Part shown: positions 4,185 through 40,160 of the stretch, one piece after another
How positions within the stretch are numbered: the first letter of the stretch is position 1
How the letters are laid out: each line of letters begins with the position of its first letter
Source: an uncultured Myxococcales bacterium
GTDB lineage: Bacteria; Myxococcota; Kuafuiibacteriia; Kuafuiibacteriales; Kuafuiibacteriaceae
Reading direction: 5' to 3'
Length of the DNA stretch: 42,427 bases
Assembly (NCBI GenBank): GCA_964519665.1
Contig: CAZFIV010000059.1
Span: 1-42,427, forward strand
Program-made: the position numbers and the translations under genes
The notes under the pieces: model-generated
Seen by the model: only the letters and a program-made list of their open reading frames with translations
The model's database searches: none
Told to the model about the DNA's origin: nothing

Positions 4185-5410
4185 GACATGCCCTCCGCGG
4201 CGCCCGCGACCACCATGGCCTTCTTCGTGATCAGCAGGTCGTCCTCCGTGAACATCAAGCGGGGCGGAGGCGTCCGCCCGGTTTCGGCCGCGCGGCGCGC
4301 CTCTCGAAAGACTTCGACGAGTTCAGGCACCGGCAGGTCACGCCCCCCGAGCCCGCCGATGAACGACAACAGCAGCGGTGCCGTCGGACCGTAGAGCGCC
4401 GACGCGATCTCAGGGAACAGGACGCCTCCCTTGCCGAGCGAGATGTTCTGGTCGATGACCGCGACCGCGCGGCACTGACCCAAGCACCGGCGGATCTCAT
4501 CATCGGGGAAGGGGCGTAGCAGCCTCGGCCGGAGCAGGCCGACGCGCCACCCTTCGTTCCGAAGGACGTCGACGGCTTCCTTGGCTTTGGTGGCAAACGA
4601 GCCGAGCATGACGATCGCGAGTTCGGCGTCTTCGAGTCGATACGTTTCCACCGACCGGTGGAGTCGGCCGAAGCGGGCTTCGAACTCGGCCGCGACCTCG
4701 TCGTACACGTCTAGTGCCGCTCGCTGGGCCAGGTGTGCCTGGTAGCGGAAGTAGGAATACATGCTGCCGCCGAGCACGGCGACCGCCTGCGAGCGGTGGG
4801 CCTTGGCCGAGAAGAACGTTTCACCACGGTCGAACGCCCCAACAAAGTCTGCGGCCAACCGATCGTCCACCAGTTTGCATGGCTCGCGGGTGAACGACAG
4901 ATAGAACCCATCGAGGTTGACGATGACCGGGAGCCGGACCTGGCGGTGCTCGGCGAGACGGTACGCCATCAGCACCGAGTCGGTCACCTCTTGCACGGTC
5001 GAGCAGTGAATCTGCAAGCAGCCGCTGTCTCGGGCGGCCAGAACGTCGCAGTGATCGGGTTCCAGGGTGACCGGCGCGGCCAACGCCCGAGAGACGTTCA
5101 CCACCACGAGCGGAACCCGCCACCCGGCGATATTGTACAGCATCTCGAAGCCGTACAGCAGGCCTTGGCTCGAGGTCGCGGTGAAGACGCGGGCACCGGT
5201 GGCCGCCGCTGCTCCGGCCGCGGTGAGCATCGAATGCTCGGACTCCAGCATGGTCAGGCGTGCGTCCATCTGACCCTTGCTGATCCAAGCCGATAGCGTC
5301 TCGATAATTTCGGTCTGGGGGGTAATGGGAAAAGCCGGAATATAGTCGACCTGGGCGAGCCGAGCCCCCCAGGCGGCGGCGCCGTTGCCGGTCTGCAGCG
5401 TACGGGTCAT
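4181..5410 (-). CDS. porA: 2-oxoacid:ferredoxin oxidoreductase alpha subunit
   Basis: The track ORF is 4181..5473, but the likely start is the internal Met (MTRTLQTGNGAAAWGARLAQVDY...) at 5410, overlapping the upstream stop as ATGA. The sequence has the typical POR alpha features (YPITPQT-like FPITPQTEI, GxxA motifs). Confidence 0.8.
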   Translation of the reverse strand: MTRTLQTGNGAAAWGARLAQVDYIPAFPITPQTEIIETLSAWISKGQMDARLTMLESEHSMLTAAGAAAATGARVFTATSSQGLLYGFEMLYNIAGWRVPLVVVNVSRALAAPVTLEPDHCDVLAARDSGCLQIHCSTVQEVTDSVLMAYRLAEHRQVRLPVIVNLDGFYLSFTREPCKLVDDRLAADFVGAFDRGETFFSAKAHRSQAVAVLGGSMYSYFRYQAHLAQRAALDVYDEVAAEFEARFGRLHRSVETYRLEDAELAIVMLGSFATKAKEAVDVLRNEGWRVGLLRPRLLRPFPDDEIRRCLGQCRAVAVIDQNISLGKGGVLFPEIASALYGPTAPLLLSFIGGLGGRDLPVPELVEVFREARRAAETGRTPPPRLMFTEDDLLITKKAMVVAGAAEGMS

Positions 5411-9689: not shown

Positions 9690-12008
9690 ATGTTCTTTAC
9701 CGACGTTCCCGCTCCGCGCACATCGATGATCGTCTGGTTCCTTGCCGCCGCGTCGCTGGTGCTTGGGCCCGCGGCCGCAGAGGCGGGACCCGCGGATGAA
9801 TCGGAGCCCACGCCCGGCACATTGGCGATCGAAGTCGGGAAGGGTTCGGATGCGGCCCCCTGGGTCGCGGCGGCGCTCGAGGCGCATCTCGCCCGTGAAC
9901 TTTCGACGTACGAACGGTTGAGCGTTCGTCACCCGGACGCGGCGGTCCATCAGGCTTGCGGTCAAGACCGCGGTTGCCGGTTGGCGCGATATCGCGAAAC
10001 CGGTGTCGACGTGCTGTTTGTGATGTCGGTTCGCGCTGACGCCATTCGTTACGAGCTTTACGAGACCTGGACTCCGTCCGAGGTCGACCGGGGCGCCATC
10101 GCACTCGGCGATATCTCGACCTTGATCGGGCTGCGGCAGCGCTTGCTGGCCGTTTTTACTCCGGTGCTCGCGCCTGGTGGCCTCCTTGACCAAAAGCCGT
10201 TTCGAACTTCGGGACGAGCGTTGAGCGGGGTCCCCGCGGTCCGCCCCGACCGCATAGCGGCGCTGCTCGCTGCGGTTGCGTTGTTCCTCGCTGTTCCTTG
10301 GGGTTTCGCATTCATGGTCCTTTCGGACCGGCGCCGGCTGTGGAGTCAGCGATGGCCGTCGCTGTGGGCGGCCACAGGGGCACTGGCGGTAGCGGCGGCG
10401 CTGATGCTGGGGGCTGGAGACCGGTTGACGGTGGGGCCATCCGCGTGGGTGCTGGGTCTGGTCGGTGGCGCGGCGTGGGGCACCTTCTTCGTGACCAACG
10501 TCCGATTCCTGGCGCCTCCACTGCCTGGGCTCGGCCGGGTGGAGCACCGAGACGTGTTTCGCCTGGTCGTCGCGTGGCTGGTCGTGGGTGGCACGCGATT
10601 CATCGGCCTGACGCTTTATTACCTTCCCTTTGCGTGGGTCACCTTCGAGATGGATGAGGGCCTTGGTCTGTCGTCGGAGGCGGCAATGATACTGCTCGCG
10701 CCGTCGGTGGGTCTGATGGCCCGCGGCTGGTTGTCGAGCTGGATGCACGTGGCGGCGCTGGTCCTCGATGAATGGTTGGTCATCGGCGAGGCTGGTCCCG
10801 ACAATCCGTGGCACCGCGAGGTCTCGAGGTATTTCACCGGCTACCTCCGCCGCACCGGGTGGGCGCTCGACCCCGAGATCCTCGACTCCCTCCTCTTTCT
10901 CCCCGGCGAGCGCGAAGGTGTCCGGTGCTACGGCGGCGGCGGGATTCCGGCCCGGGTGGTCATCGACGAGCGCCTGTTGATTTTGGCCATCGGGGCTCGC
11001 GACGACCGGGATGAAGACGGCGAAGCGGTGGCGGTGCCCGACTGGACGGCGGGACTCGTGATCGCGCAGTCCTCGCCGCCGCCGGCAGCTCGGCCGCGGC
11101 CTCGTCGGCAGCCTCGCTTACGCGGTCGGGCTCCGCTTGTTCGCCGGGAGCCGCTGACCTCCGAAACGGGCCATCAGCGCAAGCATCTCGGTCAGGCGGC
11201 AACGCTCTTGGGCTATGTGCGGCCGGAGCCCGAGGAGCATGTGCCGCTCATCGCGGACACCGTCGAAGACCTCGAGGTCGTGCGGGCCCTGCTCGCCGAG
11301 CACTATCAATGGTTCGCTCCGGATCCCGATGAAGACCACGATGACACCGATCCGACCGACAAAGACTTCTTGTTCGGCCCGCTCACCCACGCCGTCGGGC
11401 GGTTGATTCGCCAGGACAGCCGGCTCGGGATCTTCGCGCTCCTGGCCGCGGAGCGAGCCCACCGCAGTATGACAGTGGTACGTTGGCTGCACCGGCAGAT
11501 GACCGCGCTGGTGACCGGCCTCGTTGGACGCTCGGCCGTGGTCATCGCCGACGCCTACCCCGCGCTGCATTTCGCGGGTCATCATCACCTGCAGTATCTC
11601 GTGTACCGAGGGACGGGCCGCGAAGACCACTTGACGGTGCGAGCGAGCCTCGATGAGCTCGAGCGCACCTCGAGGCGCGCTCTAGGGAGGGTCGGCCGAG
11701 AAATGGTCGAAGCCGACCCGCCGACCCGCCCGGTGTTCGTGCGCCGCCTGGTTTGGCTGTCGAGCTTCCTCGCCGAACCACTGGTCGACCGCGGCGAACG
11801 TCGGCTTCGTTGGGCGGCAACGACGCTCATGGTGTTGGTAGCGCTCGGCGGACTGGGCGGCTCTGTCTATCGGGCCGTCCGCTACCACCCGGTATACATC
11901 GAACGAATGGCGGAGCAGGAGCGCCGCCGGCAACGGGTCGATCACCAAGAAGCTCAAGAGAACGAAGGAGCTGCATCGCATGTCGGAAAAAGAAACGCCT
12001 CCGAGTAG
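9690..12008 (+). CDS. large polytopic membrane protein, unknown function (first gene of 7-gene coupled operon)
   Basis: 772 aa with an N-terminal signal-like hydrophobic segment (MIVWFLAAASLVLGPAAAEA), a central cluster of about 6 TM helices, a cytoplasmic region and a C-terminal TM segment. It overlaps the next gene by 29 nt. Confidence 0.55.
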   Translation: MFFTDVPAPRTSMIVWFLAAASLVLGPAAAEAGPADESEPTPGTLAIEVGKGSDAAPWVAAALEAHLARELSTYERLSVRHPDAAVHQACGQDRGCRLARYRETGVDVLFVMSVRADAIRYELYETWTPSEVDRGAIALGDISTLIGLRQRLLAVFTPVLAPGGLLDQKPFRTSGRALSGVPAVRPDRIAALLAAVALFLAVPWGFAFMVLSDRRRLWSQRWPSLWAATGALAVAAALMLGAGDRLTVGPSAWVLGLVGGAAWGTFFVTNVRFLAPPLPGLGRVEHRDVFRLVVAWLVVGGTRFIGLTLYYLPFAWVTFEMDEGLGLSSEAAMILLAPSVGLMARGWLSSWMHVAALVLDEWLVIGEAGPDNPWHREVSRYFTGYLRRTGWALDPEILDSLLFLPGEREGVRCYGGGGIPARVVIDERLLILAIGARDDRDEDGEAVAVPDWTAGLVIAQSSPPPAARPRPRRQPRLRGRAPLVRREPLTSETGHQRKHLGQAATLLGYVRPEPEEHVPLIADTVEDLEVVRALLAEHYQWFAPDPDEDHDDTDPTDKDFLFGPLTHAVGRLIRQDSRLGIFALLAAERAHRSMTVVRWLHRQMTALVTGLVGRSAVVIADAYPALHFAGHHHLQYLVYRGTGREDHLTVRASLDELERTSRRALGRVGREMVEADPPTRPVFVRRLVWLSSFLAEPLVDRGERRLRWAATTLMVLVALGGLGGSVYRAVRYHPVYIERMAEQERRRQRVDHQEAQENEGAASHVGKRNASE

Positions 12009-15688: not shown

Positions 15689-16848
15689 CCCGTGCACTGC
15701 TGCGGCACTTGGCGAACGAGACCAGCAAGCTTCAGCAGGCGGGGCTCTACAAGCAGGAAGTTGCCGACGAGCGCGATGCGCCGAGCGGGTCCATCGACTT
15801 CACGAGCGGCGACGTCCTCGGCCTCGAGCATCGACCCGAGGTGGCCGACGCGGCTGTCGCCGCCATTCGCGAACACGGGCCTGGGCGGTCGTCGCCACGT
15901 CTGTTTGGTGGCACGCTGTCGATTCACCAGAGGTTGGAGGCGAGGGTCGCTTCGCTGATCGGTGTACCCGAAGCGATCGTGTACGCCAGCGGCTATCTCG
16001 GCAACGTCGGTCTATTCGATACGATGTTCGATGCGCGGGACTGTATTCTCGTCGACGCTGCGGTCCATCCCAGCTTGGCCGAGGGCATTCGACTCTCCGG
16101 GGCCCGGGCCTTGCCTTACGTCAGTGAGGATCTCGAGAGTCTAGACGACCGGCTGCGACGGTCGCGAACGGCCCGATTCCGAGTCGTGGTGACCGATGGC
16201 GTCTTTCCTTTGAGTGGAAATCTTGCACCACTGGGCGAGCTGTGCGATCTCGCGGACCGCTACGACGCGCTGGTGGTCGTGTACGACGCATTGGGCGTCG
16301 GTGTTCTCGGCGACGGGCAAGGGGGCAGCGTCGAAAAGTGGGGCGTCGCGGGTCGGGTGGACCTGGTCACCGGGACGTTCGTCGATGTGCTCGGTGGAGC
16401 AGGGGGGGGCTATGTGGCTGGTCGGCCGGAGATGATCTCGTGGCTGCGCCAGAAGTCCACGCCTTATCTATTCTCGGGTGCGCTCCCACCCGGAAACGCC
16501 GCCGCTGCCCAGGCCGCGATCGAGCTGGTGAGCAGCGGCCAAGCGCCCGCCCGCGAGGTCCTGGCTTTGACCACGGCCTTCAAAGAGCAGCTCGAGGGCC
16601 GAGGGTTCGACGTTCAAGGTGACGGGCACGCCATCCTCACGGTCGTCGTCGGCAACGCGGTGACGCTGCAGCGGATGGTCAACCAGCTGGGGGAGCTCGA
16701 TGTGCGGGTGCAGGGTATGTGCTATCCTGTTGTGCCCGAGAACATGGCACGCATTCAGTTCAGGATCACCGCGGCTCACACCGAGGCGGTGCTGAGCACT
16801 GCGGTTGAACGTCTGGCGCAAGCGGCCCAAACACTGCACCTCCTATGA
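15685..16848 (+). CDS. alpha-oxoamine synthase family (AONS/KBL/serine palmitoyltransferase-like) PLP-fold protein lacking the catalytic Lys; predicted pseudoenzyme
   Basis: 387 aa with the class-II aminotransferase fold (HPSLAEG ~ HAS motif; GTFVDVLGGAGGGYVAG ~ GTFSKALGxxGGY). The Schiff-base Lys position is Asp (T-F-V-D), and the D-x-A-H motif is VYDALGVG, with His replaced by Leu. Confidence 0.7.
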   Translation: MTRALLRHLANETSKLQQAGLYKQEVADERDAPSGSIDFTSGDVLGLEHRPEVADAAVAAIREHGPGRSSPRLFGGTLSIHQRLEARVASLIGVPEAIVYASGYLGNVGLFDTMFDARDCILVDAAVHPSLAEGIRLSGARALPYVSEDLESLDDRLRRSRTARFRVVVTDGVFPLSGNLAPLGELCDLADRYDALVVVYDALGVGVLGDGQGGSVEKWGVAGRVDLVTGTFVDVLGGAGGGYVAGRPEMISWLRQKSTPYLFSGALPPGNAAAAQAAIELVSSGQAPAREVLALTTAFKEQLEGRGFDVQGDGHAILTVVVGNAVTLQRMVNQLGELDVRVQGMCYPVVPENMARIQFRITAAHTEAVLSTAVERLAQAAQTLHLL

Positions 16849-18422
16849 CGGTGAACGAGTCTTCGACGGACCTGCGGCGAAGGATGGCCCTTCGATTCTC
16901 TGGGACGACCGCGGACCTACCGCGGTCGATCTTCGGCCGCCTCCGCTACGCCTCCGGTATCGCCAGCCTAGGCGGATTTCGAAGGCTCGTCCGAATCCTG
17001 CCCGACAGCGAGACCCGGGCCGTGGCTGACCAGAAGGCGGTCGAGAACATCGTGCTGTCGCTCGGCCGGCTCAAGGGCGTGCCGATGAAGTTAGGGCAGC
17101 TGGCGGGGTATGCCGACTCCGGTGTTCCGCCGGCGCTGCGGCCGGCCTTCGCGGCCCTCGAAACCCACGCCCAGGCGGTACCCGTGGCCCACATGCGCGC
17201 GGTGCTGGATAAAGAGCTCGGGCCGCGCGCAGACGAGCTGTGGACGACCATGAGCTGGACCCCAGTCGCGGTCGGCACGCTCGGTCAGGTATACCGGGCG
17301 GAGCTCGACGGGACGCCCGTCGCGGTCAAGATTCGATACCCGGACATCGAGAGGACGATCCGCCTCGATTTTCGCCCGGCCGCCCTCGGCTCTCAGGCGA
17401 TGGACGCCTTTCGCCGCCGGGGGCGACGAGGCGATGCGACCATCAAAGAAATCATGGGTCGTATCCTCGACGAGTGCGACTACCGCCAAGAAGCAGAGCG
17501 GCAGCAAGCCTTCGCTCACGCCTTCGACGAGCATCCGGTCATCACCGTGCCGCAGATCTTTTCAGAATATTCGACGCCGGCCGTCCTGACCACCGAGCTC
17601 GCGGAAGGGCAGCACCTCGACGAATACCTGGCGACGAAGCCGAATGTCGAAGCACGGGAGCGCGCAGGGCTGGCGTTGTTCGACTTCTACGTCGGGTCGT
17701 TGTTCGTGTTGGGGGCGTACAACTCGGACCCGCACGCCGGAAACTACATCTTTACCGACGATGGCCGAGTCGTCGTGTTCGATCACGGCGCGGGCCGAAC
17801 CTTTTCGAGCGTCCCGATCAGTGCGATCCGATACCTGGGGCAAGCGATGCTCAGCGACGACTGGGCCGGGGTTCGCGAGGCCCTCGGGGCCCTCGGAATC
17901 GTGCCCAGCCGAGAGCGGCTCGATGAAGCGCCGCTGCGGCGGGTGCTGACCTGGCTGTTCGAGCCGATGCTCGCGCCCGACGAGTCGCAGTGGACCTTGC
18001 CGAACGCGGAGGAGGTCGGTGCGATCACCAAGTGCGTGCGGGAGTACAAGGCGATCGAGCTTCCGTCGGAGCTGGTCTTCTTGATTCGGCTTCGGGTCGC
18101 GCTATCGGCCGTGTTGGCTCGGCTCGGAGTGCAGGCCAACTGGCGAGAGGTTCTCGGTGCCCATCTCCAGGGTGACTTCTTTCTTCGGCCCCCCCCGCTC
18201 GATGTGGTGCTCGTCGAGCCCGGTCCCCGTCCGATCGAGCTGCTACGGGTCTTGCGGGACGAGCTCGGCGGTGCGGTCACCGAGGCCAAGGCGCTGATCG
18301 ACGCCGTCCCCTGCGTAGTGCGGTCCGAGCTCGACCGAGACGTAGCGAGGGCCGTCGGGGCACGACTCACCGCAGCCGGAGCAAAAGTCGACCTGCGAAC
18401 GCCCCCGGAAGCGCGTTCCTAA
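16845..18422 (+). CDS. ABC1/UbiB-family atypical protein kinase fused to a C-terminal ribosomal L7/L12 C-terminal-like domain
   Basis: 525 aa. The ABC1 signature is WTPVAVGTLGQVYRAELDGTPVAVKIRYPDIERTI plus a downstream catalytic HAGN motif. The last ~70 aa (LDVVLVEPGPRPIELLRVLRDELGGAVTEAKALIDAVPCVVRSELDRDVARAVGARLTAAGAKVDLR) align colinearly with the bL12 CTD (FDViL..GanKvaViKavR..tGLGLKEAKdLVEsaP..lKegvsKddAEalKkaLEeAGAeVevK). Confidence 0.75.
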   Translation: MTVNESSTDLRRRMALRFSGTTADLPRSIFGRLRYASGIASLGGFRRLVRILPDSETRAVADQKAVENIVLSLGRLKGVPMKLGQLAGYADSGVPPALRPAFAALETHAQAVPVAHMRAVLDKELGPRADELWTTMSWTPVAVGTLGQVYRAELDGTPVAVKIRYPDIERTIRLDFRPAALGSQAMDAFRRRGRRGDATIKEIMGRILDECDYRQEAERQQAFAHAFDEHPVITVPQIFSEYSTPAVLTTELAEGQHLDEYLATKPNVEARERAGLALFDFYVGSLFVLGAYNSDPHAGNYIFTDDGRVVVFDHGAGRTFSSVPISAIRYLGQAMLSDDWAGVREALGALGIVPSRERLDEAPLRRVLTWLFEPMLAPDESQWTLPNAEEVGAITKCVREYKAIELPSELVFLIRLRVALSAVLARLGVQANWREVLGAHLQGDFFLRPPPLDVVLVEPGPRPIELLRVLRDELGGAVTEAKALIDAVPCVVRSELDRDVARAVGARLTAAGAKVDLRTPPEARS

Positions 18423-18437
18423 CCTCGCAAGCCGAGG
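18423..18437. terminator. short GC hairpin (cctcg-caagc-cgagg) in the 32-bp spacer between convergent genes
   Basis: 5-bp stem immediately after the TAA stop of the kinase gene. It sits between the convergent gene ends at 18422 and 18455 and is weak (no U-tract). Confidence 0.25.
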
Positions 18438-18454
18438 CCGAGCGGGCCTTTCGA

Positions 18455-18988
18455 TCACTTCGCGAGGAGCGAGTGGACCGAGATGCTGGCGAGTGCCAGG
18501 TCGGCCGTCATGGCCTTGCCGATGGCCACGAGGCCGAGTCGGCGAACGCGTGAGCGGTCGAGGGGCGCATCGATTCGATGGGGAACGAAGCCATCGACGG
18601 GAAGGTCGACCACGGTCCAGACCGGCGGAGCTCGAAAGGACTGCCGATACGACTGCCAGGGGTGTCGAACATCGGGCGTCTTGAGGTGACAGCCGTAGGT
18701 CTCGCCGTTGCCCAGCACGAGCAAGCGCAGTTGAGCGCTCGAGGACAGGTCGAGCTCGAGGTTGGCCGCCATCTGTACGAAGCCTCCGCCATTGTCGAGG
18801 CGAACGTGCCCCACGAGCCGCAGTGCCGGACGGCCGTCGATGACCTCCGCTCGTAGCTCCCCCGATGAACGACCGCCCATGACTTGGTCGAGAACGAGAG
18901 TAAAGCGCGGTCCCTGCTTGGACGGATCGAAGATAAGCATAAACCAGTGTCCGGCCGGAGAGTACAGGCTGACAAATCGCTGGTCCAT
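18455..18988 (-). CDS. CIA30-family protein (complex I intermediate-associated protein 30-like)
   Basis: 177 aa with the conserved QVMGGRSSGEL (VMGGvS) CIA30 motif. Its start ATG directly abuts the TGA of the upstream redoxin gene (TGAATG). Confidence 0.6.
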   Translation of the reverse strand: MDQRFVSLYSPAGHWFMLIFDPSKQGPRFTLVLDQVMGGRSSGELRAEVIDGRPALRLVGHVRLDNGGGFVQMAANLELDLSSSAQLRLLVLGNGETYGCHLKTPDVRHPWQSYRQSFRAPPVWTVVDLPVDGFVPHRIDAPLDRSRVRRLGLVAIGKAMTADLALASISVHSLLAK

Positions 18989-19777
18989 TCAGTCGAGGTG
19001 CGCTCGCAACGCCGCGAGCACGACTTCTGGACCAGAGCGCCGCAGATAGTCCTCCGCCTGGTCGATCCACAAGACCTTGCCCTGTTGGTCCACCAGCAGT
19101 GAGGTTGGTACCGGCAGCGCGTCTGCGTGATCGCTCGGTGGGCCTGAGTGGAATCCTTGATTGCGCAAGCCAAACGCATCGGTCACCACCAGCTTCGGAT
19201 CCGACAGCATGATGGCCTGCAGTCCGTGCTGGTCACGCTTTGCGCGTATCGCTTGAGGCTGATCCGTGCTCACCGTGAGCACCTGAACCCCGCGTCGATC
19301 GAACTCCGGCCGCAGTTCTTCCCATCGCCGCAACTCGGCGACGCAGTAGGGTCACCAATGCGCGCGGAAGAACTTAATGAGTACGATGTGACCCCTGAGG
19401 CTCTGGGAGTCAAAGGCATGGCCGTGTTCGTCGACCGCGGCAAAGCGCGGTATCGTGTCGCCCACCTGGATGGCATCGACTGCGGCTTCCTGCGAGCTGA
19501 CCGCGATTGTCAACGGAACGAGCGCCCCGAAGAAGATCGCGGGCAGTGCCGCAATGGCGCCGTACCAGCGAGTGCCGGCCACGAACGCGCCGATTCCGAG
19601 CGCTCCCGCGGTCAAGAAGAGGAACACGAAGACAGACCGGTTCTCTGGAATCTCGACTCGATTGATCAGATGCGCCCACACCGCGAGGGTCACACCCACC
19701 AGTGCGGCCGCCAGTAATCCGAACGTCGTCCCCAACCTTTTCGGATTCTTTCTACGCGCCCTCGGTGCCTCGTTCAT
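18989..19777 (-). CDS. membrane-anchored TlpA/ResA-like thiol:disulfide oxidoreductase, selenocysteine-containing candidate (in-frame UGA at 19352..19354; U-P-Y-C redox motif)
   Basis: Track ORFs 19352..19990 and 18989..19333 share one frame and are separated only by a TGA: ...GHIVLIKFFRAHW-[TGA]-PYCVAELRRWEELRPEFDRRGVQVLTVSTDQ... This is a redoxin domain with TGA at the first Cys of WCxxC. A 7-bp hairpin with an AGUUG loop (GUCGCCG-AGUUG-CGGCGAU) starts 9 nt after the UGA, which is bSECIS-like. The N-terminal part has 2-3 TM helices. The start is uncertain (19777 MNEAPR..., or up to 19990). Confidence 0.65.
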
Positions 19778-20053
19778 GCTTCGACCCGCTTCCACGACTT
19801 GAATCGAGTCGGACAGTAGCGAGCGAAACGGCTCAATGCAACCAACCCGACTGCATCGGCTCGTACGCATCATCGATGACCCGCCGTCGGAAGGGCGCTC
19901 AGTCCCGCCGTCAGCTCGAGAGGCGGTGGCGTCCGTCCGACCGGCGAAGCCTGCTCGTGCTCGCCGCGGAGCTTCCATAACTGCCTTCATGGCTTATCGT
20001 CAGATTCCGCACTTCACTCGGACACTTCGCTATCGTCTTCGGCTCGCCGTCCA

Positions 20054-20458
20054 TTGCCCCAATCACTGGCAATCGGCGGTTTCCGCTTCAGACATCGGGA
20101 CGGCTACGCAGTTCGCGACGTCATGAATCTCACCGATGTGGGGCACCTGGCCGACGATGCGGACAGCGGCGAAGACAAGATGGAGCCGGCCGCGAGGAAG
20201 AGCGGGCGGGACATCCGGGATCTATCGCGGCTGTACACGGCTGCGTTCTTCGAGCACTTGGGCGACTTGGCCGTCGTTCCGCCCGTCTCGGGCGACGTCT
20301 TCAAAGCGGTCAGGAATCCGGACCTTCCGCCGACCGACGTCGTGAGGCTCGTCGCCGACGCCGGTCGAGGGCTTGGGCTCCGTTCGTTGGCGGGCCCGGC
20401 TGTTGGCGGGCCCGGTGGGCGGCGATGGCGGCGCCACGCCATTTCAGCTCAGGACTGA
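20054..20458 (+). CDS. hypothetical protein (weak call)
   Basis: 134-aa ORF in the gap between two minus-strand genes. Its composition is more protein-like than the antisense alternative 20104..20442, but there is no domain and no clear RBS. Confidence 0.25.
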   Translation: MPQSLAIGGFRFRHRDGYAVRDVMNLTDVGHLADDADSGEDKMEPAARKSGRDIRDLSRLYTAAFFEHLGDLAVVPPVSGDVFKAVRNPDLPPTDVVRLVADAGRGLGLRSLAGPAVGGPGGRRWRRHAISAQD

Positions 20459-21941
20459 GCGAGGGAATCGCGGATGGTCTGCAGCACGTGGATCCGCGCA
20501 TATCGCTTGCTATTCGCCGGAACGATGACCCAAGGGGCGGTCGCCGTGCTCGTGCGCGCGATCATTTCGTTCACGGCCTCCTCGTAGAGGACCCACTTGT
20601 CGCGGTTGCGCCAATCTTCTTCGGTGATTTTGTGGCGCTTGTAGTCGATCTGTTGCCGTTCTTCGAACCGGCGCAACTGCTCGTCCGCGTCGATGTGAAG
20701 CCAGAATTTCAGCACCTTGACGTTGGCGATCGAGAGCTGCTCTTCGAACTCGTTGATTTCGCGGTACGCACGCTTCCACTCCGCGGTCGTCGCAAAGCCC
20801 TCCACCCGTTCGACGAGCACGCGGCCGTACCACGAGCGGTCATAAATGGTGAATCGCCCGCCCCGCGGAACGCGTCGCCAAAAGCGCCACAGGTAGTGTT
20901 GGGCGCGCTCCTCATCGGTCGGGGCTCCGACTGAGATCACCTGAAACAGACGCGCATCGAGGGCCGCGACGAGGCGCCGGATCGTGCCGCCCTTGCCGGC
21001 GGCGTCCCAGCCTTCGAGGACGACGACCGTCGAACGTTTCGCCTCGTACGCCTCGGCGGCGAGGCGACCGATCTCCTCTTGCAGCCGCTCCAACCGCTTC
21101 TCGTACGTTTCGTCGTCAACGCTCTGCGAGAGGTCGACCCGGTCGAGGATGGTGATCTGATCCCCTGGGGGCGGGTTGAGCACCGCGTCCGTCGAACCGT
21201 TACCGTGGTCGCTCTCGGCGCGCTCCGTCGCTTGCTCGGCCGCCATCTTCATCGCCTGAAAGACGGCCTGCGTGACGGCGAGGTCGCGGTAGCGACGGTC
21301 CCACGCTTCGATGAGCTGCCATCGGGCGAGCCCGAGGTCGGTGATGCGAATCGCGCGCTCGGCGGCCGCGACGAGCTCGTCGTACCGAGAGTGGAGTTTT
21401 CGATCGCCCTTCGAGACTCGCCATTTGGTGGCCTTCTTGGCGTCCCACTTCTTGTAGCGTCGCGCCTGCTGTTCCTTCGTGATGTGCAGCCAGAACTTCA
21501 GGATGAGCGCGTGGTCTACGGCGAGCATTCGCTCGAGCCGTACGACGCTCAAAAGCTCGCGTTCGAACCGTGCCTGGTCGATTTTGCCCAGCACATGGCG
21601 ACGAATCAATCGCTCGTACCAGCCCCCAAGGTAGATGCCGATGCGCCCGCGTCTCGGCATCGTCACCCAGTGTCGCCATTGCGGCGGTCGTTCGCGCGCT
21701 TCGTCCGTGGGATCGCGGTCCGTGTGGACTTCGACGCCTCGCACGTCGAGGAGCTTGGTCAGGAAATTGAGGACACCACCTTTTCCCGCCCCGTCGACCC
21801 CCTCGATGATGATGATGACCGGGACGTCGCTCTTCTGCAACGCAAACTGCGCCTTCAGCAAGGGTGCCCGCAGTGCGTCGAGGCTCGCGTCAAATTCGTC
21901 CCTCGAGAGGCGTCGGCCCAGTGCGGCAGTCTCGAACATGT
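20449..21941 (-). CDS. two-domain polyphosphate kinase 2 family protein (PPK2; polyphosphate:AMP/ADP phosphotransferase-like)
   Basis: Two tandem PPK2 domains, each with a Walker A (IIIEGVDGAGKGG and VVLEGWDAAGKGG) and lid motifs (YLWRFWRRVPRGGRFTIYDRSWY). The likely start is MFETAALG at 21941, preceded by GGAGAAAAC; the track ORF extends to 22083. Confidence 0.85.
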
Positions 21942-27933: not shown

Positions 27934-28758
27934 TCAGCCCAACAAACGGACGAGCCGTTTCAGGAACATCAGATTCTCCTCGAGGCGGCCGGCCAGCTGC
28001 TGGGTCATCAGGATCAGCGCGAACATGAACATCACCAGGCCGGCCATCGCCTTCACCCCCATCGCCATGAAGTACGCGTTCAGCTGAGGCGCGATGCGGT
28101 TGAACATGCCGAACACGACATCGACCAAGAAAGAAGCGAAGAGCCCCGGGAAAACGAGCGCGAACGCAAGACCGAACAAACTGTTGGTATAGCTGAGCAC
28201 CTGGTCGATGAAAGTGTCGAAGCCGGCCGCGAAGGCCGGAAAGCGGTCGATGCTGACCACTTGGTAGCTGTCGATGACGCTCTCGATGAAGATGCCATGG
28301 CCGTTGAGGGCGCAGAACACGACCAAGAGGAGCTGAAAGTTGAACTGACCGACGGGCGAGGCACGCAGCTGGATCTCCGGCACCTGGACCTCGGCCATGT
28401 TCGAGCCGCGCATGACGTCGAGGGCGCGACCGCCGATCTCCATGGCGTAGAAAATCTCGGACGCGATAAAGCCGATCACGAAACCGATGAACACCTCTTT
28501 CATCATTAAAATGATGTAGGCGACCCAATTTGCATCGAGTGGGTCCTTCATCGCGTCCTGCGCGTACGGAAAGACCAGGATGGCGAGGCCCACGCTCAGG
28601 CCGATCCGGGTTTCGGTGGGCACCAGCCGCCCCCCCATAAAAGGGGTTTGAAAGATGATCGGAACGATGCGCATCAGCACGAGCGAGAACATGAGCAGGA
28701 AGTCCGACAGGTTGCCCCGCAGACCCACCGCTTCGTAAATCGATTGCCAGCCGCCCAT
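27934..28758 (-). CDS. sctT: type III secretion export apparatus protein SctT (FliR/YscT family)
   Basis: 274-aa polytopic membrane protein whose layout and length match the FliR family, located in the sctRST block. Confidence 0.8.
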   Translation of the reverse strand: MGGWQSIYEAVGLRGNLSDFLLMFSLVLMRIVPIIFQTPFMGGRLVPTETRIGLSVGLAILVFPYAQDAMKDPLDANWVAYIILMMKEVFIGFVIGFIASEIFYAMEIGGRALDVMRGSNMAEVQVPEIQLRASPVGQFNFQLLLVVFCALNGHGIFIESVIDSYQVVSIDRFPAFAAGFDTFIDQVLSYTNSLFGLAFALVFPGLFASFLVDVVFGMFNRIAPQLNAYFMAMGVKAMAGLVMFMFALILMTQQLAGRLEENLMFLKRLVRLLG

Positions 28759-28819
28759 ACTTGTTCGGTTCCGATGCCGTCGTCGAGCGCTCCCGTGGTT
28801 TGGCTCGCAGGGCCGCCCG

Positions 28820-29092
28820 TTAGTTGCCGATGACGGTGGCGAAACCTTCGAAGCAGATCTTTCCGAAGGTCGCCATAGTGTGGCCCAGACTCGGGCCTAA
28901 GATCGCCAGCGTTCCGAACACCACGATGACCTTGGGAACGAAGGTGAGCGACTGTTCCTGCACCTGAGTCACGGCCTGGAACAAGGCGATCAGGAGACCG
29001 ACGAGCAGACTGAACACCACGGGCGGCCCGGAGATGACGAGCGTGAGCAAGATACCCTCGTTGGCAACCTGGAGAATAAAGTCTTCGACCAT
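28820..29092 (-). CDS. sctS: type III secretion export apparatus protein SctS (FliQ/YscS family)
   Basis: 90 aa with two TM helices and the conserved LIALFQAVTQVQEQSLTFVPKV motif. The start overlaps the sctR stop (TGATG). Confidence 0.9.
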   Translation of the reverse strand: MVEDFILQVANEGILLTLVISGPPVVFSLLVGLLIALFQAVTQVQEQSLTFVPKVIVVFGTLAILGPSLGHTMATFGKICFEGFATVIGN

Positions 29093-30132
29093 CAGATGTA
29101 CCCCGTGATCAGGCCCTTGGTGATCAGATACCAGCCGTCGATCATCACGAACAGCAGCAGCTTGAACGGTAGAGAAATCGTCGTTGGGGAGAGCATCTGC
29201 ATACCGAGGGCCATCAGGATGTTCGACACGATCATGTCGATGACCAGGAACGGCACGAAGATGATGAACCCGATCTGAAACGCTTCTTTCAGCTCCGAGA
29301 TAACGAACGACGGGATGAGCACCATGAAGTCCTCCGGACCCACCCCCGCTCGGTCTTCGGGCTTGCGCAGTCGCTTGGCCATGCTGAAGAACATCGCCTG
29401 ATCTTTGTCGTGACTGTTCTTCCTCAGGAACGCTTTGAGCGGGGGGCCGCCCTCCCCGATCGCTTCGAACAACAGGTCGACGGTCTGTGTCGATACCAGT
29501 GAGCCCTCGGGTTGCCGTTTGTTGATGATCTGTTCGGTGGCGTTGTAGATCTCGATGCCCACCGGGGCCATGATGTAGACGGTCAATACGATCGACAGGC
29601 CGGTGATGACCTGGGTCGGCGGAATCTGCTGAGTGCCGATCGCCGAGCGCACGATCGACAAGACCACCGATATCTTCACGAAGCTCGTGACCATGATGAT
29701 CACGAACGGGAGCAGGGTGAGCAGCGCGAGCGCTCCGAGGAGGACCAGCGGTCGGGCGGCGACCGACCCTTTGAGCTGAAGGTCGGAGGGCTTCAGCTTC
29801 GCTTTGCGCCGGCTCGAGCTTTGGGCCGCGGCGTCATCGGGGGCGGAGAGCGTCGCCCCGCCGACGCCGACCGCGGCCGCCAGCATCAGCGCCGAGACCC
29901 ATCGCGGCCGGCGCTCGAGTGCCGGCCGCGATGCCGGAAGGTCGTCGCGAGGCGCGAGGGCAACGCTATCGGGGCCCTGAGGCGGCGAGGACGGCGACGG
30001 ATGGCGATATGCCGTCGCCGCGGACCGCTTCGGCGCTGTTCGGCGCTCGAGGCTGGCCTTACGGCGTCGTTCTCGTCGCGGGGGCGGACGGGACGGCGCG
30101 AGCCAAGCTGGCCATCTAGCGATAGCGACCAT
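29092..30132 (-). CDS. sctR: type III secretion export apparatus protein SctR (FliP/YscR family), with Pro/Arg-rich N-terminal extension or later true start
   Basis: The C-terminal ~250 aa are FliP-like (LLPFVIIMVTSFVKISVVLSIVRSAIG, GLSIVLTVYIMAPV, MQMLSPTTISLPFKLLLFV). The first ~82 aa are Pro/Arg-rich; the alternative start Met83 (29886) precedes a signal-like segment. The ATG at 30132 is 3 nt from the fliO-like stop. Confidence 0.85.
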   Translation of the reverse strand: MVAIARWPAWLAPSRPPPRRERRRKASLERRTAPKRSAATAYRHPSPSSPPQGPDSVALAPRDDLPASRPALERRPRWVSALMLAAAVGVGGATLSAPDDAAAQSSSRRKAKLKPSDLQLKGSVAARPLVLLGALALLTLLPFVIIMVTSFVKISVVLSIVRSAIGTQQIPPTQVITGLSIVLTVYIMAPVGIEIYNATEQIINKRQPEGSLVSTQTVDLLFEAIGEGGPPLKAFLRKNSHDKDQAMFFSMAKRLRKPEDRAGVGPEDFMVLIPSFVISELKEAFQIGFIIFVPFLVIDMIVSNILMALGMQMLSPTTISLPFKLLLFVMIDGWYLITKGLITGYI

Positions 30133-30135
30133 CTC

Positions 30136-30828
30136 TCAGTTCCCTTTCGCTTTACGGCGGAACAGGTCGTTCAGCCGGCTGAATCCGGGGCTGGGGATCT
30201 CCGTTTCGGCAAGCAGACGCTCGACCCGATCACTATCGAGCTTGGACATCATCGATATGTTCTGCTCGGCCGCGCCCACGAGATAGTACTCGTCGCCGAG
30301 CTTGAGGACCATGATCGAGCGCTTTTGATCGATGGCCAACCGGTCCACCACTTTCAGCAGACGGCGGGGTGCGGTGGGCGGTTCGATCCTCATGAGGCGG
30401 GGCAGCAGCTTGCCCAGCAGAAGATAGGCCAGCAAGCTGACCGCGGTCAGCATGATCACCGTACGGACGAACGTTGGCCAGAGGCTGGTTTCGCCCGAAT
30501 CGTCGCTGAGGGCGTCTTGCTCGGCCTGGAGCCGCTCGAGCCGAGCGGCTTCCTCAGCCAGGCGCTTGGCTTCGGCCGGATCTTGGCGGGACGGGGTATC
30601 GGCGCCGGCGGTCGAGGTCGAGCTCGACGCTTGGGCGGTGGTCGCCGTCGCGGTGCCCGAGCCGCCGGCCGACTCGGGCGCTGGCTGCCCGAACCCATCG
30701 CGCGGGCCGCTGACGGCGGCCACCACCATCACCAGGGCGATCCACTGGCGGCCGGACCGTCGCCCACTCGTTCCTCGCAGGGGGGCCGCTGGCGGCCGCA
30801 AGGGGGTTTGCGTCGGGCCGAGCCTCAT
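30136..30828 (-). CDS. FliO-like small membrane protein with Ala/Pro/Ser-rich N-terminal region
   Basis: The C-terminal ~110 aa comprise a single TM helix plus LKVVDRLAIDQKRSIMVLKLGDEYYLVGAAEQNISMMSKL. This matches the FliO core (LKISASASLGARERVVVVDVEDARLVLGVTAGQINLLHKL). The gene overlaps the sctQ stop by 4 nt. Confidence 0.65.
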   Translation of the reverse strand: MRLGPTQTPLRPPAAPLRGTSGRRSGRQWIALVMVVAAVSGPRDGFGQPAPESAGGSGTATATTAQASSSTSTAGADTPSRQDPAEAKRLAEEAARLERLQAEQDALSDDSGETSLWPTFVRTVIMLTAVSLLAYLLLGKLLPRLMRIEPPTAPRRLLKVVDRLAIDQKRSIMVLKLGDEYYLVGAAEQNISMMSKLDSDRVERLLAETEIPSPGFSRLNDLFRRKAKGN

Positions 30829-32429
30829 GGAGAAGGCGCCTTTACGAGGCTGAGGATCTTGACGCCGAGCGAGCCTTCGATCTCGACCAGCTCTCCCTTC
30901 GCTAGCAGCCGGCCATTGACCACGAGGTCGACCGGCTCGGCCGGCGAACGCCCAAGCTCGACAATGTGGCCGGTGCCCAGGCGGATAACCTCGTCGGCGG
31001 TCAACTGAACGCGGCCGAGTTCGACCACCACGTGCACCGGGACATCGCCGAGCAGGGCTTCGGCTTCGACCGGGCCTTCTTCGAAGTGGACCTCTTCCGA
31101 GGGACCGGCCGTTCCTTCTTCGGGATTGTATTCGAGCTCCGGGGCACCCGGCGCGTTAGGGTCGTAGGGCTGTTCGGGGTACTCTTCGGCGTACTCGTCG
31201 TAGTACTCCTCGTCGTCGCCTTCGTTCTCGTCGTCGATGCCGTACTCTTCGTCGAGGATGTCATCGTCGGTCAGATCGCCGTCGTCGTTTTCGTCGTACC
31301 TTGGTTCCTCGTACTCAGCCATGACTTCCTCGGGGTGCCCGTGCATGCCGTGCACGATGTGTGGGTCGTGAACCGGGGGGACCTTGCGCGCCCGCACCTG
31401 CTGGATCTGAAACGCCCGTTGCCGCGCGTCACCAGAACCTTGGCTCCCGACGATGCCGTGAAGGACGACACTCCGACCGAGACCGACCGTCATGCGGGCC
31501 GGCCCGACGGGTTCGCCGTGCTCCAGGCGGAGCTCACAGTGGTCGAGCAGGACGATGTCGCCAGGGTCGAGCGCACGGATGTCTTCGGGGGTCAGCTCGA
31601 TGTGGCCGCCTTCGACCGGGCAGTCGACCATGACGCCCTCGAGACGATCCATCCGGCGGCGCAGGTGTTCGCGGACCCGACCAGCGAGCGGGGACGTCGG
31701 CGGGAGCTGGTCGGGCACCAAGCGGCGGACCAGCGAGGTCGGCACCACGGCGCGCACGTAGCCGACGTCGAGGTCGAAGTTCATCTTCCACGCGGCGACC
31801 AGCCAGAAGTCATCATTGCGGACGATGTCGGCGATCGTCTTGAGGTCGTTTCGAATGTCTTCGAGGCGAACCGCGACCTGCTCCGGAAAGGCCATCTCGT
31901 GCTGAAAAAGGTGGAGGACTTTGAGAAGGAGAAAGGAGAAGACCCCTTGCTCGATCTCGGTCAGCGGTCGGTGGACGTCGACCGCTACCCCGTGGCTCCC
32001 GAGGAGCCGGTCGACGGCGCGGTAGACGAAGCGCAGGTCGACCTCGATAATGACTTTTTCGGCGAGCGGGGGCAGTCCGACGATCACCAAGCAACTGACC
32101 CCGGGGATCATCGCGCGCAGCTGCGTACGGCGCATGACGCGGACCGTGTGCAGCCACAGGTCGACGTCCATGTCGGTGTACTTCTGAAGCTCCTGCCGGA
32201 TCTGGGTCAGGAAGCCGGGTTCGAAGACGGCTTCTGGAAGAACGCGGCTCAGCGCGCGGTGGACGTCGCGATGTTCCCGAGGGATTCGCTCCAGCTCATC
32301 CAATCGGAACGGGCGTACCCGCTTATCGCGCAGGTCGGGGTCGTCCGGCTCGTACGTGCGCGATTGCCGCGTGTAGGCGGCGGCATCGACCACCGAAATC
32401 GGCGGTACAGGGGGCGGTCGGGCGGCCAC
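30825..32429 (-). CDS. sctQ: type III secretion cytoplasmic-ring / sorting-platform protein SctQ (FliM/FliN-like, C-terminal SpoA domain) with acidic low-complexity insert
   Basis: 534 aa. The C-terminal SpoA/FliN motif is VPVHVVVELGRVQLTADEVIRLGTGHIVELGRSPAEPVDLVVNGRLLAKGELVEIEGSLGVKI. An Asp/Glu/Tyr-rich insert of about 85 aa spans residues ~370-455. Confidence 0.85.
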   Translation of the reverse strand: MAARPPPVPPISVVDAAAYTRQSRTYEPDDPDLRDKRVRPFRLDELERIPREHRDVHRALSRVLPEAVFEPGFLTQIRQELQKYTDMDVDLWLHTVRVMRRTQLRAMIPGVSCLVIVGLPPLAEKVIIEVDLRFVYRAVDRLLGSHGVAVDVHRPLTEIEQGVFSFLLLKVLHLFQHEMAFPEQVAVRLEDIRNDLKTIADIVRNDDFWLVAAWKMNFDLDVGYVRAVVPTSLVRRLVPDQLPPTSPLAGRVREHLRRRMDRLEGVMVDCPVEGGHIELTPEDIRALDPGDIVLLDHCELRLEHGEPVGPARMTVGLGRSVVLHGIVGSQGSGDARQRAFQIQQVRARKVPPVHDPHIVHGMHGHPEEVMAEYEEPRYDENDDGDLTDDDILDEEYGIDDENEGDDEEYYDEYAEEYPEQPYDPNAPGAPELEYNPEEGTAGPSEEVHFEEGPVEAEALLGDVPVHVVVELGRVQLTADEVIRLGTGHIVELGRSPAEPVDLVVNGRLLAKGELVEIEGSLGVKILSLVKAPSP

Positions 32430-32513
32430 GCTCTCGAGGTGGTACCCCTCAGGCTCTCGTGGTGCAAGTGAGTCGGGTGGACTGATGCCCGCGGACCCAC
32501 TAACCCTCTATCC

Positions 32514-38900: not shown

Positions 38901-39985
38901 TGCAGGATGCCCTGTCGATGAGCTTCCGACAGCGCTCGTGCGATAGCGAGCCCGATCCGGATCGCTTCGTGCGTTGTCAGGCCGGCTTTCAGTGCTTCGC
39001 TGAGCGTTTCTCCAGGGAGGTACTCCAGCGCCAGGTACACCTGGCGACGATGTCGCCCGACCCCGTACAGTACGACGATGTTCGGATGCGAAAATACGGC
39101 CGTGGATCGGGCTTCCTCTAGCAGGTCGGAGGTTTCGGGCTCGCTTACGGCGTCGTGCCGCAGCAGTTTGAGCGCGACCAGCCGTCCGAGCACCGTATCG
39201 CGAGCCAGATAGACGTCGGCCAAGCCTCCTCGCCCCAAATGACGTTGGATCTGAAAGTGGTCGATCCAGGTGCCGGCCTCGAGCTCGGTGACCTCTGCCG
39301 CCCTACGGCCCCGACGCCGGGTGGGCTCGTCTACCTTGGCGAGCGCGACTTCTACGGCGCGCATCGAGGGCCGTTCTTGCTGCAAGCGGTGAGCGTCGGA
39401 GCTGTCGAGCCATCTCCGAAGCGGCGTTTCGGGGGCGTCCCTCGGACTCAAGGCGTCGATCAGTGCAAAAAAGTCGACGATATCTTGATCCGCCTGCGCG
39501 ACCCTTCCGAGCAGTCGTCCAATGCCGAGGTCGTAGAGCCGAACGGCGGTCCCGACCGAGATCGACCACGGCGACAGAGCGCCGTGAGTCCATCCGTGCT
39601 CGTGCGCGTACGCCAGCGCTTCGGCAATGCCGCACGCTGCGTCGAGTCGATCGGACGGGTCAGGCAAGTTGTTGGCAATGGCCGGCCACATTGCGTCTTC
39701 GGCGGCGTACGCTTGCTCCACGACGAGCAACGAGACCGATCGGAAGTATCGGGCCCCGACCGTCGTGGCGAGCATCGGATGTCGAGCCCGTCCCGCGCCG
39801 TCCAGGAACGTTGGAATCCGACCCGAGGGGTCATCTTCGGTCCTCCATACGCGGAGGGCGAGTCGCTGCTGATGTTGCTCACCCGTGAACGCCCAGTGGT
39901 CGTCGGCGCGGCACACCTCAACGACCTTATCGTACGACTCAAGAAGGGCAGCCCGAATGGTCGACACCGCGATGACCTCGGTCAC
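35948..39985 (-). CDS. multidomain Ser/Thr protein kinase: N-terminal degenerate pseudokinase, canonical Hanks kinase, STAND-type P-loop NTPase and C-terminal FGE-sulfatase (formylglycine-generating-enzyme-like) domain
   Basis: 1345 aa. The kinase motifs are GRGGLADVY, VALK, HCDLKPANVL, DFGLAR and GTPAYMAPE. The upstream domain is degenerate (HGALSPWSI and DLG replace HRD and DFG). The NTPase region has PFRGLEAFDQRHARFFVGREEE plus VVGASGTGKSS. The C-terminal FGE motifs are DRYEVSN, RLPTSLEWEKAARGG, GNVSEWT, RIVRGGDW and RVGFRCARD. Confidence 0.9.
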   Translation of the reverse strand: MTEVIAVSTIRAALLESYDKVVEVCRADDHWAFTGEQHQQRLALRVWRTEDDPSGRIPTFLDGAGRARHPMLATTVGARYFRSVSLLVVEQAYAAEDAMWPAIANNLPDPSDRLDAACGIAEALAYAHEHGWTHGALSPWSISVGTAVRLYDLGIGRLLGRVAQADQDIVDFFALIDALSPRDAPETPLRRWLDSSDAHRLQQERPSMRAVEVALAKVDEPTRRRGRRAAEVTELEAGTWIDHFQIQRHLGRGGLADVYLARDTVLGRLVALKLLRHDAVSEPETSDLLEEARSTAVFSHPNIVVLYGVGRHRRQVYLALEYLPGETLSEALKAGLTTHEAIRIGLAIARALSEAHRQGILHCDLKPANVLVPEDGRPRVVDFGLARAFSTVNVAPGRSWSGTPAYMAPEQWRGLELSGAVDVWALGLILYEMLEGDLPRRKREGPPLPPGLEEGELPPPSTSVGPLGFLVASCLRGTPQERPTADEIAHTLERLYAVSVPAEDLEIPPFRGLEAFDQRHARFFVGREEESDRFLRLLRTQAAITVVGASGTGKSSFVQAAVLPRLAHTGRWQFLRIRPGARPMRALAAQLMGEASRSSRDTESVDSFAARLTERPALLNLKLHDRAEEGDTNILVFVDQAEELITNVEDLDQAAAFLKALGGAFDGPDDSIRVVMTLRDDFLGRLAALPGAATLVQELVVLVSPSTDMLVRCVTAPLAAIGYQLSPRDLAQRMVDEVKDAASPLPLLQFTCAELWKERNEATRTISEEAYAALGGVQGALARRADQLMASMNPSQFEAAKTILLRLVGPEGTRLIRTSDALVTDLPGGSDALEKLVEGRLVTAQLRPGRDEGGATYELVHEALIRSWTQLARWTDETREERQLLQELEETVQPWLRRGALIQETWDGPTVERTLDRFESLGIRPPPHIDRFLKLGRYRAHKQKARERLFWTVTFAATALFAIVAGAAAVVFRSQAEQINQAAANLGRFDLVLHPFDIDPATGEPRPANVSELPDLSWRLHDIALGDILERGAPIEENYVRSQRLPSGSSDSVRYSVEVRGGSLFLLVIGRGRKAECGPSELRLQRAPGYAERYRDTVIEVWIPTCAASLANMAQVPAGEFISGGAGIPKTRFPSYVEPEKIVDLPAFAMDRYEVSNQALGHFTRMSRLTGMNATIYPKSIPDSEILGLPEHPAVLVGYHTAEAFCRFHGKRLPTSLEWEKAARGGIYLDEQRKLANPMPTRNLPWGSILIPPPLNISLEIDGYETTAPVTAFEAGASPYGILQLAGNVSEWTSTSTAGSPQVRIVRGGDWLSPPDRQHWYIAYENTRVVGTDDLRVGFRCARDL

Positions 39986-40160
39986 CGAGCAAAACTAGCC
40001 CTACCTGCCCTTCTGGGCAACAGCGCCTTCTGGGCCGCCATCGGTTCGACCCGTTGGCGGTCGATGCCATCGGGGATGCGGCGGTCGATTCACCGCCATC
40101 GCTCTCGAATCCCAGAAGAACAGGATGGCAATCGGTCGATTGCAGAGGTCATGATCAGTT

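Follow-up and report, generated by a model that had tools for sequence, protein, structure and literature searches.

Introduction

ResA and TlpA are membrane-anchored, extracytoplasmic CxxC oxidoreductases that are reduced through CcdA/DsbD, and the hairpins of Escherichia coli fdhF and fdnG are the prototype of the bacterial selenocysteine insertion sequence (bSECIS). Selenoproteins termed "Prx-like thiol:disulfide oxidoreductases" were catalogued in a 2006 bacterial survey (PMC1794560), and the Global Ocean Sampling survey counted 225 selenocysteine (Sec) sequences and 2,740 cysteine (Cys) homologues of "Prx-like 1" (PMC2398784). The family, PF00578 proteins with a UxxC motif (U, Sec), was predicted by Zhang and Gladyshev, and a 2026 review lists it as "predicted with high confidence" (PMC13188914). 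In this report, we analyze a redoxin gene on the reverse strand of a 42,427-nt stretch of DNA (hereafter, the window) from an uncultured Myxococcales bacterium (assembly GCA_964519665.1, contig CAZFIV010000059.1, positions 1 to 42,427). Judging from its sequence and that of its relatives, positions 18989-19777(-) very probably constitute a single gene for a selenoprotein of ~262 residues, in which an in-frame UGA would be decoded as Sec by way of a bSECIS hairpin.

By the published definition (PF00578 plus UxxC), the window gene is a member of the Prx-like thiol:disulfide oxidoreductases, possibly belonging to a distinct subfamily. It has in common with them PF00578, a UxxC motif with Sec in first position, abundant Cys homologues and a bSECIS immediately downstream, and both occur in marine and delta-proteobacterial-type organisms. 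An initial annotation of the window had described UxxC redoxins as a known selenoprotein class and, indeed, PF00578/UxxC selenoproteins have been catalogued since 2005-2008. The window protein resembles ResA and TlpA in its CxxC-type motif, in being tethered to the membrane and in having the PT...D strand in the region of the cis-Pro loop, and DsbD genes are adjacent to the gene in relatives. It differs from them in having a three-helix anchor where theirs has one helix, in its predicted Sec in place of Cys, in an extracytoplasmic location that is predicted, and in the absence of cytochrome-c or copper-protein maturation genes near the window gene. With Bcp/PrxQ it shares PF00578 and the AhpC/TSA fold (Foldseek TM-scores of 0.8-0.88 to Bcp1 and Bcp4). 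However, the predicted Sec of the window protein lies in a thioredoxin-like UxxC and not in the TxxU of the Sec-containing peroxiredoxins PrxU and Prx, and the PxxxT/SxxC motif is absent. In the family surveys, we found no description of an anchor of three helices, of a linkage to DsbD or of the block UGA-CCN-UAY-UGY-RUCGSCGAGUURCGNCGR, which is near-invariant across phyla, and a full-text literature search for the WUPYC motif returned nothing relevant.

Results and Discussion

A single reading frame spans the UGA

The initial annotation held that two open reading frames (ORFs) in 18989-19990(-) are one frame broken only by the TGA at 19352-19354. Translation bore this out, as the sole internal stop was the TGA at 19354-19352, in the context ...LIKFFRAHW*PYCVAELRRWEEL..., with flanking residues ...GHIVLIKFFRAHW-TGA-PYCVAELRRWEELRPEF.... 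When Cys was put at the TGA position to give a joined protein, a Pfam scan placed one AhpC-TSA domain across the TGA (PF00578; 88.4 bits vs. a cut-off of 26; E = 4.6e-25; profile positions 1-123 of 124), and the Redoxin domain (PF08534) likewise spanned both halves around it (domain region 19067-19465(-)). The predicted Sec codon, UGA 19352-19354(-), occupies the first position of a W-U-P-Y-C redox motif, and its counterpart in homologues is the first Cys of HWCPYC, in keeping with the earlier description of a W-C-x-x-C motif whose first Cys is replaced by UGA. The putative resolving Cys of UxxC is a TGC at 19343-19345(-) and is invariant across the family.

The frame proposed in the initial annotation was sound, but it probably does not start at 19990. 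Since homologues begin with approximately M-K-x-G-T-K, which aligned with ...PKRLGTT of the window protein, the start codon is most likely the ATG at 19777-19775 (MNEAPRARRKNPKR...), giving 262 residues. In-frame ATGs further upstream (19873 and 19990) are possible starts, but are without a counterpart in the homologues. As so delimited, the complete gene (18989-19777(-); 262 codons plus stop) is predicted to encode a three-transmembrane-helix anchor followed by a Prx-like/ResA-like thioredoxin-fold domain. It ends at an ordinary TGA (18989-18991(-)), with the ATG of the next gene, which encodes a CIA30-domain protein, directly after it (TGAATG). The terminating TGA shares its frame with the CIA30 start (...AHLD-TGA-MDQRF...; stop 18989-18991, ATG 18986-18988). 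One gene thus holds two UGAs, one predicted to be recoded (19352-19354) and one terminating (18989-18991), and a downstream hairpin is found at the former only.

Gene calls by NCBI and Logan divide the gene into a 173-aa N-terminal piece (P0002, ending ...FFRAHW) and a C-terminal ORF. Split calls were found wherever gene calls were seen, i.e., for the window gene, for L001/L002 and, apparently, for L003. A promoter and terminator scan of 18200-20600 found nothing. The remaining in-frame TGAs of the window with coding signal on both sides were considered as further selenoprotein candidates and rejected as ordinary gene junctions.

Conservation of the UGA and of the downstream coding sequence

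Relatives of the gene were collected in a scan of GTDB representatives (one genome per species), which found 293, the best match being 68% identical; the best 80 of the 293 were taken as related loci. These came from Myxococcota, Halieaceae/Luminiphilus/Halioglobus (including the cultured strain HTCC2080), Acidobacteriota, Binatia and other metagenome-assembled genomes (MAGs). In all related loci examined, the variable position of KFFR[GA]HW-x-PYC was TGA in 87/87 occurrences and never TGC or TGT. Every TGA copy had an intact in-frame ORF past the TGA, of 118-138 codons (120 codons in the window). Taken together, the invariant TGA and the intact downstream ORFs effectively exclude a pseudogene, a sequencing error or a pair of separate genes. 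Downstream of the TGA, residues were conserved while their synonymous sites varied freely, and this part is therefore under purifying selection as coding sequence.

A protein search gave ~50 full-length homologues of 250-265 aa with the same N-terminal hydrophobic region and with HWCPYC opposite the HW-TGA-PYC of the window. The initial annotation had recommended alignment to Cys-containing homologues and had held that homologues ending at the TGA would speak against its reading. We found that the UGA coincided with Cys in all full-length homologues, that the Cys forms read straight through this position, and that the TGA forms keep their downstream ORF. Among fragments from other samples, P0053 and P0054 ended exactly at ...FFRAHW, and P0052 started just past the motif. 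The DNA behind P0054 (L001/L002) reads TGG TGA CCC TAC TGT ..., in frame.

Two loci carry paralogous TGA copies, in tandem in L026 (672-1412 and ~1790-2560) and on opposite strands in L012 (+, ~9942-10700; -, around 5128-5202). The gene and its bacterial-type SECIS are also present in L022, a MAG that bears the label of an archaeon (Nitrosopumilus sp.), although this contig is probably mis-binned.

A conserved, covarying hairpin follows the UGA

The 7-bp stem with an AGUUG loop that the initial annotation had placed 9 nt downstream of the UGA was recovered at 19342-19324. This 19-nt element (19324-19342(-)) begins 9 nt past the TGA and consists of a 5' arm (19342-19336, GUCGCCG), a loop (19335-19331, AGUUG) and a 3' arm (19330-19324, CGGCGAU). 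Its fold had an energy of -10.4 kcal/mol alone, which none of 200 shuffles equalled, and of -14.5 kcal/mol in a 39-nt context. The published bSECIS model calls for an apical loop of 3-9 nt, an upper stem of 4-16 bp, a minimum free energy of -7.5 kcal/mol or lower, a G at loop position 1 or 2 that mostly precedes another G or a U, and 16-37 nt between UGA and loop (PMC13188914). The window hairpin, with a loop of 5 nt, a stem of 7 bp, the loop sequence A-G-U-U-G (G-U at loop positions 2-3) and a UGA-to-loop distance of 16 nt, falls within all of these constraints. It resembles the fdhF and fdnG elements of E. coli in lying inside the coding region immediately 3' of the UGA, in carrying G-U in an apical loop of small size, and in its spacing from the UGA. 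In contrast to them, it is short and fully paired over 7 bp, has no bulged U, has the minimum spacing of 16 nt, and shows no similarity in primary sequence.

In an alignment of 84 sequences (81 distinct), standard pairs occupied 98.8% of alignment cells, compared to 22-71% when the 3' partner was slid by one to three columns. The fifth stem pair (26:36) covaries, being C-G in 58 sequences, G-U in 18, G-C in 5 and unpaired in none, and 0/500 shuffles reached the observed score. The change at this pair joins a nonsynonymous Ala/Gly change to a synonymous third-position change in an Arg codon. RNAalifold, applied to the 84 sequences, returned the same short stem, together with a 4-bp element that takes in the UGA and is without informative variation. 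Synonymous sites were also constrained, with the normalized synonymous codon entropy of conserved amino-acid columns being 0.35 in codons +1 to +10 vs. 0.83 elsewhere (Mann-Whitney p = 4.7e-6). Within this block, Val +4 was encoded by GTC and Glu +6 by GAG without exception, and Leu +7 only by TTA or TTG, though Leu elsewhere was mostly CTN. The hairpin, whose position the initial annotation had considered to be that expected of a bSECIS, is supported as such by the published constraints, covariation, RNAalifold and synonymous-site suppression alike.

Five Cys-type genes encoding the same peptide (CPYCVAELRR) were available for comparison. In three of the five, the hairpin was lost (-0.9 to -2.2 kcal/mol), and the remaining two kept the stem but had the loop AGCUG, so that the G-U was lost. 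A longer alternative hairpin, taken from the minimum-free-energy fold of 71 nt (z-score -1.34, which is weak), was not conserved and was dropped.

Genetic code and Sec machinery

TGA is the stop codon of 17 of the 23 confident window genes, the redoxin gene included, and the genetic code is therefore standard. Among the related loci, ARAGORN detected tRNA-Sec within 10 kb of the homologue in five (L028, L056, L070, L074 and L077, of which L070 is HTCC2080). In L070 (14023-17475), L074 (18193-20759) and L077 (2299-5738), tRNA-Sec was accompanied by selB (GTP_EFTU plus SelB-specific domains) and selA (PF03841, E = 1e-154), while L056 (11142-13258) had tRNA-Sec and selB, and L028 (20196-20719) had tRNA-Sec and a partial selB. 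Since tRNA-Sec, selB and selA lie within 1-10 kb of a redoxin homologue, selenoprotein genes and Sec machinery are physically clustered in this lineage, which includes HTCC2080.

Membrane anchor, fold and family

Hydropathy peaks at approximately residues 17-39, 49-67 and 73-95 predict three transmembrane helices over ~residues 15-95 (19493-19735(-)). Structure was predicted for the closest Cys homologue, P0001 (58% identity with the window protein), for which AlphaFold gave a predicted local distance difference test score of 92.7 and a predicted template modelling score of 0.86. In this model, helices at 5-29, 37-56 and 61-82 precede a thioredoxin fold. The three hydrophobic peaks and the three modelled helices support the earlier view that this is a membrane-anchored redoxin.

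By sequence, the nearest solved structure was ResA (4nmu, E = 2.4e-11), and comparison of structures with Foldseek ranked the Bcp/PrxQ/Tpx peroxiredoxins and ResA about equal (target TM-scores of 0.8-0.88). The peroxidatic PxxxT/SxxC motif is replaced by A-H-W-U, with Ala three positions before the predicted Sec. No NCBIfam model reached its cut-off for the window redoxin. Scores in bits, followed by the cut-off, were 51.4 vs. 170 for ResA, 27.5 vs. 230 for TlpA, 17.5 vs. 123 for DsbE, 47.8 vs. 140 for Bcp, 22.4 vs. 270 for PrxU, 23.5 vs. 272 for AhpC, 33.3 vs. 120 for the SelL-related redox protein and 29.5 vs. 300 for WAxxUGC. Considering that PxxxT/SxxC is absent and that the NCBIfam models score far below their cut-offs, the protein is best regarded as a redoxin of the Prx-like, CxxC type (UxxC in this case).

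Charged residues flanking the helices were counted in 83 Sec-type sequences. The mean numbers of Lys plus Arg (K+R) and of Asp plus Glu were 1.70 and 0.37 in the N-terminal tail, 1.58 and 1.78 in loop 1, 0.75 and 0.02 in loop 2, and 1.16 and 2.40 in the 20 residues after the third helix. These counts weakly favor an orientation with the N-terminus inside and the C-terminus outside.

Neighboring genes

Conserved neighbors were sought by targeted tblastn; unsupervised clustering was swamped by spurious overlapping ORFs in the high-GC DNA. In ~15 Myxococcota-type loci, a full DsbD gene (DsbD_N + DsbD_TM + Thioredoxin_7) lies immediately upstream of the redoxin gene on the same strand. In ~13 Halieaceae-type loci, the gene downstream is convergent, and its product combines AhpC-TSA with DsbD_N. 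This downstream gene has an in-frame TGA of its own, ...ALVFYRSAVW-U-PPCWTQLGEL..., and its N-terminus is cut off by gene callers, making it a candidate for a second UxxC selenoprotein. It is located at L001:3241-4470(-) and L070:10849-12060(-), and also in L009, L028, L056, L058, L071, L074, L075, L079, L081, L083 and L084. These DsbD-type neighbors suggest a thiol-disulfide relay rather than assembly of the complex-I type.

In the window, the redoxin gene is followed with zero-nt spacing by a CIA30-domain gene of 177 aa (18455-18988(-); PF08547, 76.1 bits vs. 24, E = 4.1e-21), with which it is probably co-transcribed. The TGAATG junction reported in the initial annotation was confirmed at 18991-18986, and the PF08547 score is above the gathering threshold; no NCBIfam model matches the CIA30 protein. 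The further suggestion that this neighbor hints at a role in complex assembly did not find support. A tblastn search with the window CIA30 protein had no match in any of the 80 related loci and, because of this, the coupling is particular to the window contig, with the CIA30 gene being outside the conserved system. The other neighbors in the window (PPK2, ABC1 kinase and aminotransferase) were likewise not syntenic in the related loci.

Three Cys-type loci with flanking sequence differ from the Sec-type loci in having a divergent TetR-family regulator directly upstream (L087:4282-4908, L088:4267-4905 and L089:4309-4935) and no DsbD.

Proposed mechanism and alternative explanations

Drawing on sequence, conservation and known bacterial Sec decoding, we propose that the UGA at 19354-19352 would be read as Sec during translation. 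The hairpin would bind SelB carrying GTP and Sec-tRNA(Sec), allowing delivery to the ribosome before release factor 2 acts. By analogy with CxxC enzymes of the thioredoxin fold, Sec would serve as the N-terminal nucleophile, attacking a substrate disulfide, sulfenate or peroxide, and the Cys at +3 would resolve it into a selenenylsulfide. A predicted three-helix bundle tethers the thioredoxin-fold domain to the membrane. The case is weaker for location and electron supply: the redoxin domain probably faces the periplasm and is re-reduced via a DsbD-type transmembrane electron relay, in the way that ResA and TlpA are by CcdA/DsbD.

Several observations weigh against this interpretation. No selA, selB, selD or tRNA-Sec was found within the 42-kb window (ARAGORN found no tRNA, and 26 large ORFs were scanned with Pfam), selD was not seen in any flank of the related loci, and an Rfam search of the hairpin gave no relevant match. 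One related copy, L003 (ENA ERZ25039600 contig_17677, 10001-10040), has a 1-nt deletion just past the TGT of U-P-Y-C that takes the frame into a TAG; this copy is either a pseudogene (or decaying copy) or the product of a long-read indel error. As regards the membrane relay, neither DsbD nor CcdA is encoded in the window. The charge bias seen in the Sec-type anchor is modest (K+R of 2.45 for N-terminal tail plus loop 2 vs. 1.58 for loop 1), and 30 Cys-type sequences have the opposite bias (K+R of 0.17 in the N-terminal tail and 2.43 in loop 1).

A frameshift beside the motif in L003, and gene callers that end the protein at 173 aa (P0002), would agree with a pseudogene or sequencing error, in which a Cys codon (TGC/TGT) has been mutated or misread as TGA and only a truncated membrane stub is made. 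Yet the TGA was present in all 87 copies, from independent assemblies and several phyla, each with an intact downstream ORF; moreover, the downstream part is under purifying selection as coding sequence, and the hairpin following the TGA is conserved and covarying. We therefore regard this explanation as close to impossible. It is also extremely unlikely that the locus comprises two genes, i.e., one for a small three-transmembrane protein ending at the TGA and one for a C-terminal redoxin fragment translated on its own. A TTG-initiated ORF (18989-19333) does lie downstream, and pipelines call two genes in L001 as well, but the C-terminal piece would lack the entire CxxC motif as well as the fold's first beta-alpha unit. 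Furthermore, a single Pfam domain (profile positions 1-123) crosses the TGA, the Cys-type homologues are single proteins of 250-265 aa, and the synonymous suppression sits exactly on the SECIS-shaped hairpin and not on a ribosome-binding site. A third explanation grants read-through but has the UGA decoded as another residue (e.g., Trp, Gly or Cys) through code reassignment, a suppressor tRNA or leaky termination. In its favor, Sec machinery was found beside the gene in relatives but not within the window, and the Sec residue is a prediction. Nevertheless, TGA terminates 17/23 window genes, including this one, and its carriers belong to standard-code phyla. In addition, homologues have their catalytic Cys at this position, as is characteristic of Sec/Cys pairs, the hairpin fits the bSECIS model, and selA, selB and tRNA-Sec occur beside the gene in several relatives, all of which leaves non-Sec decoding very unlikely.

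The location of the redoxin domain is less clear-cut than the identity of the recoded residue. The gene may encode a selenoprotein whose redoxin domain is cytoplasmic, acting as a membrane-tethered peroxidase (e.g., on lipid hydroperoxides) that is reduced by cytoplasmic thioredoxin. This arrangement is predicted by the Cys-type anchors, with their strongly positive loop 1 (2.43 K+R) and uncharged N-terminal tail, and it would agree with a fold as close to the Bcp/PrxQ peroxidases as to ResA, with the absence of a DsbD gene from the window, and with the lack of an evident signal peptide in the CIA30 protein, whose gene is probably co-transcribed with the redoxin gene. Against it, the N-terminal tail and loop 2 of Sec-type proteins are positive, loop 1 is net-neutral to acidic, and the flank after the third helix is acidic. 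Moreover, the gene is accompanied by DsbD-family modules in ~28 Sec-type loci, and the catalytic PxxxT/SxxC motif of Prx is absent (AHW-U). On balance, we consider a cytoplasmic domain possible but rather unlikely, and retain the periplasmic, DsbD-linked orientation as the probable one. Given the charge patterns, the redoxin domain may lie on opposite sides of the membrane in the Sec-type and Cys-type groups.

Significance of the gene and its hairpin

Conceivably, although we find it doubtful, the window gene represents a distinct and undescribed three-helix "selenoredoxin" subfamily in at least four phyla. Such a subfamily would be marked by a near-invariant minimal SECIS and by its wiring to DsbD-type relays (in the Halieaceae, together with a second UxxC selenoprotein and selA-selB-selC), and its orientation would be opposite to that of its Cys-type sister subfamily. 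If this were true, Sec use would track the exposure of the active site to the periplasm. Whether or not it forms a subfamily of its own, the gene adds a membrane-tethered UxxC selenoprotein, probably DsbD-linked, to the predicted Sec-dependent redox proteins of largely aerobic lineages. The case is well supported yet would be unsurprising to specialists, and it does not overturn current understanding.

Since no NCBIfam model reaches its cut-off, standard annotation can neither name the gene nor join its halves. A family model that draws on the 80-plus sequences and on the UGA-plus-hairpin block would mend gene annotation in numerous marine and soil MAGs, as well as in HTCC2080. The compact 19-nt hairpin, situated inside a conserved coding sequence, provides a clean natural example of a minimal bacterial SECIS and is a candidate portable element for the engineering of Sec insertion.

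Other genes of the window

Adjoining the CIA30 gene, 16809-18422(+) encodes an ABC1 atypical kinase with a match to the ribosomal L7/L12 C-terminal domain at its C-terminus (PF00542, E = 3.4e-9), which is an unusual combination. Further away, a 1,348-residue ORF at 35948-39994(-) combines a Ser/Thr protein kinase, an nSTAND1 NTPase and an FGE-sulfatase domain. For the Lon-like protein, the nearest named match came from Myxococcota, at 44% identity. Finally, a flagellar export/switch cluster at 27934-32507(-) includes FliR-like (Bac_export_1), FliP and a FliM-FliN fusion-length ORF, and the source organism is therefore probably motile.

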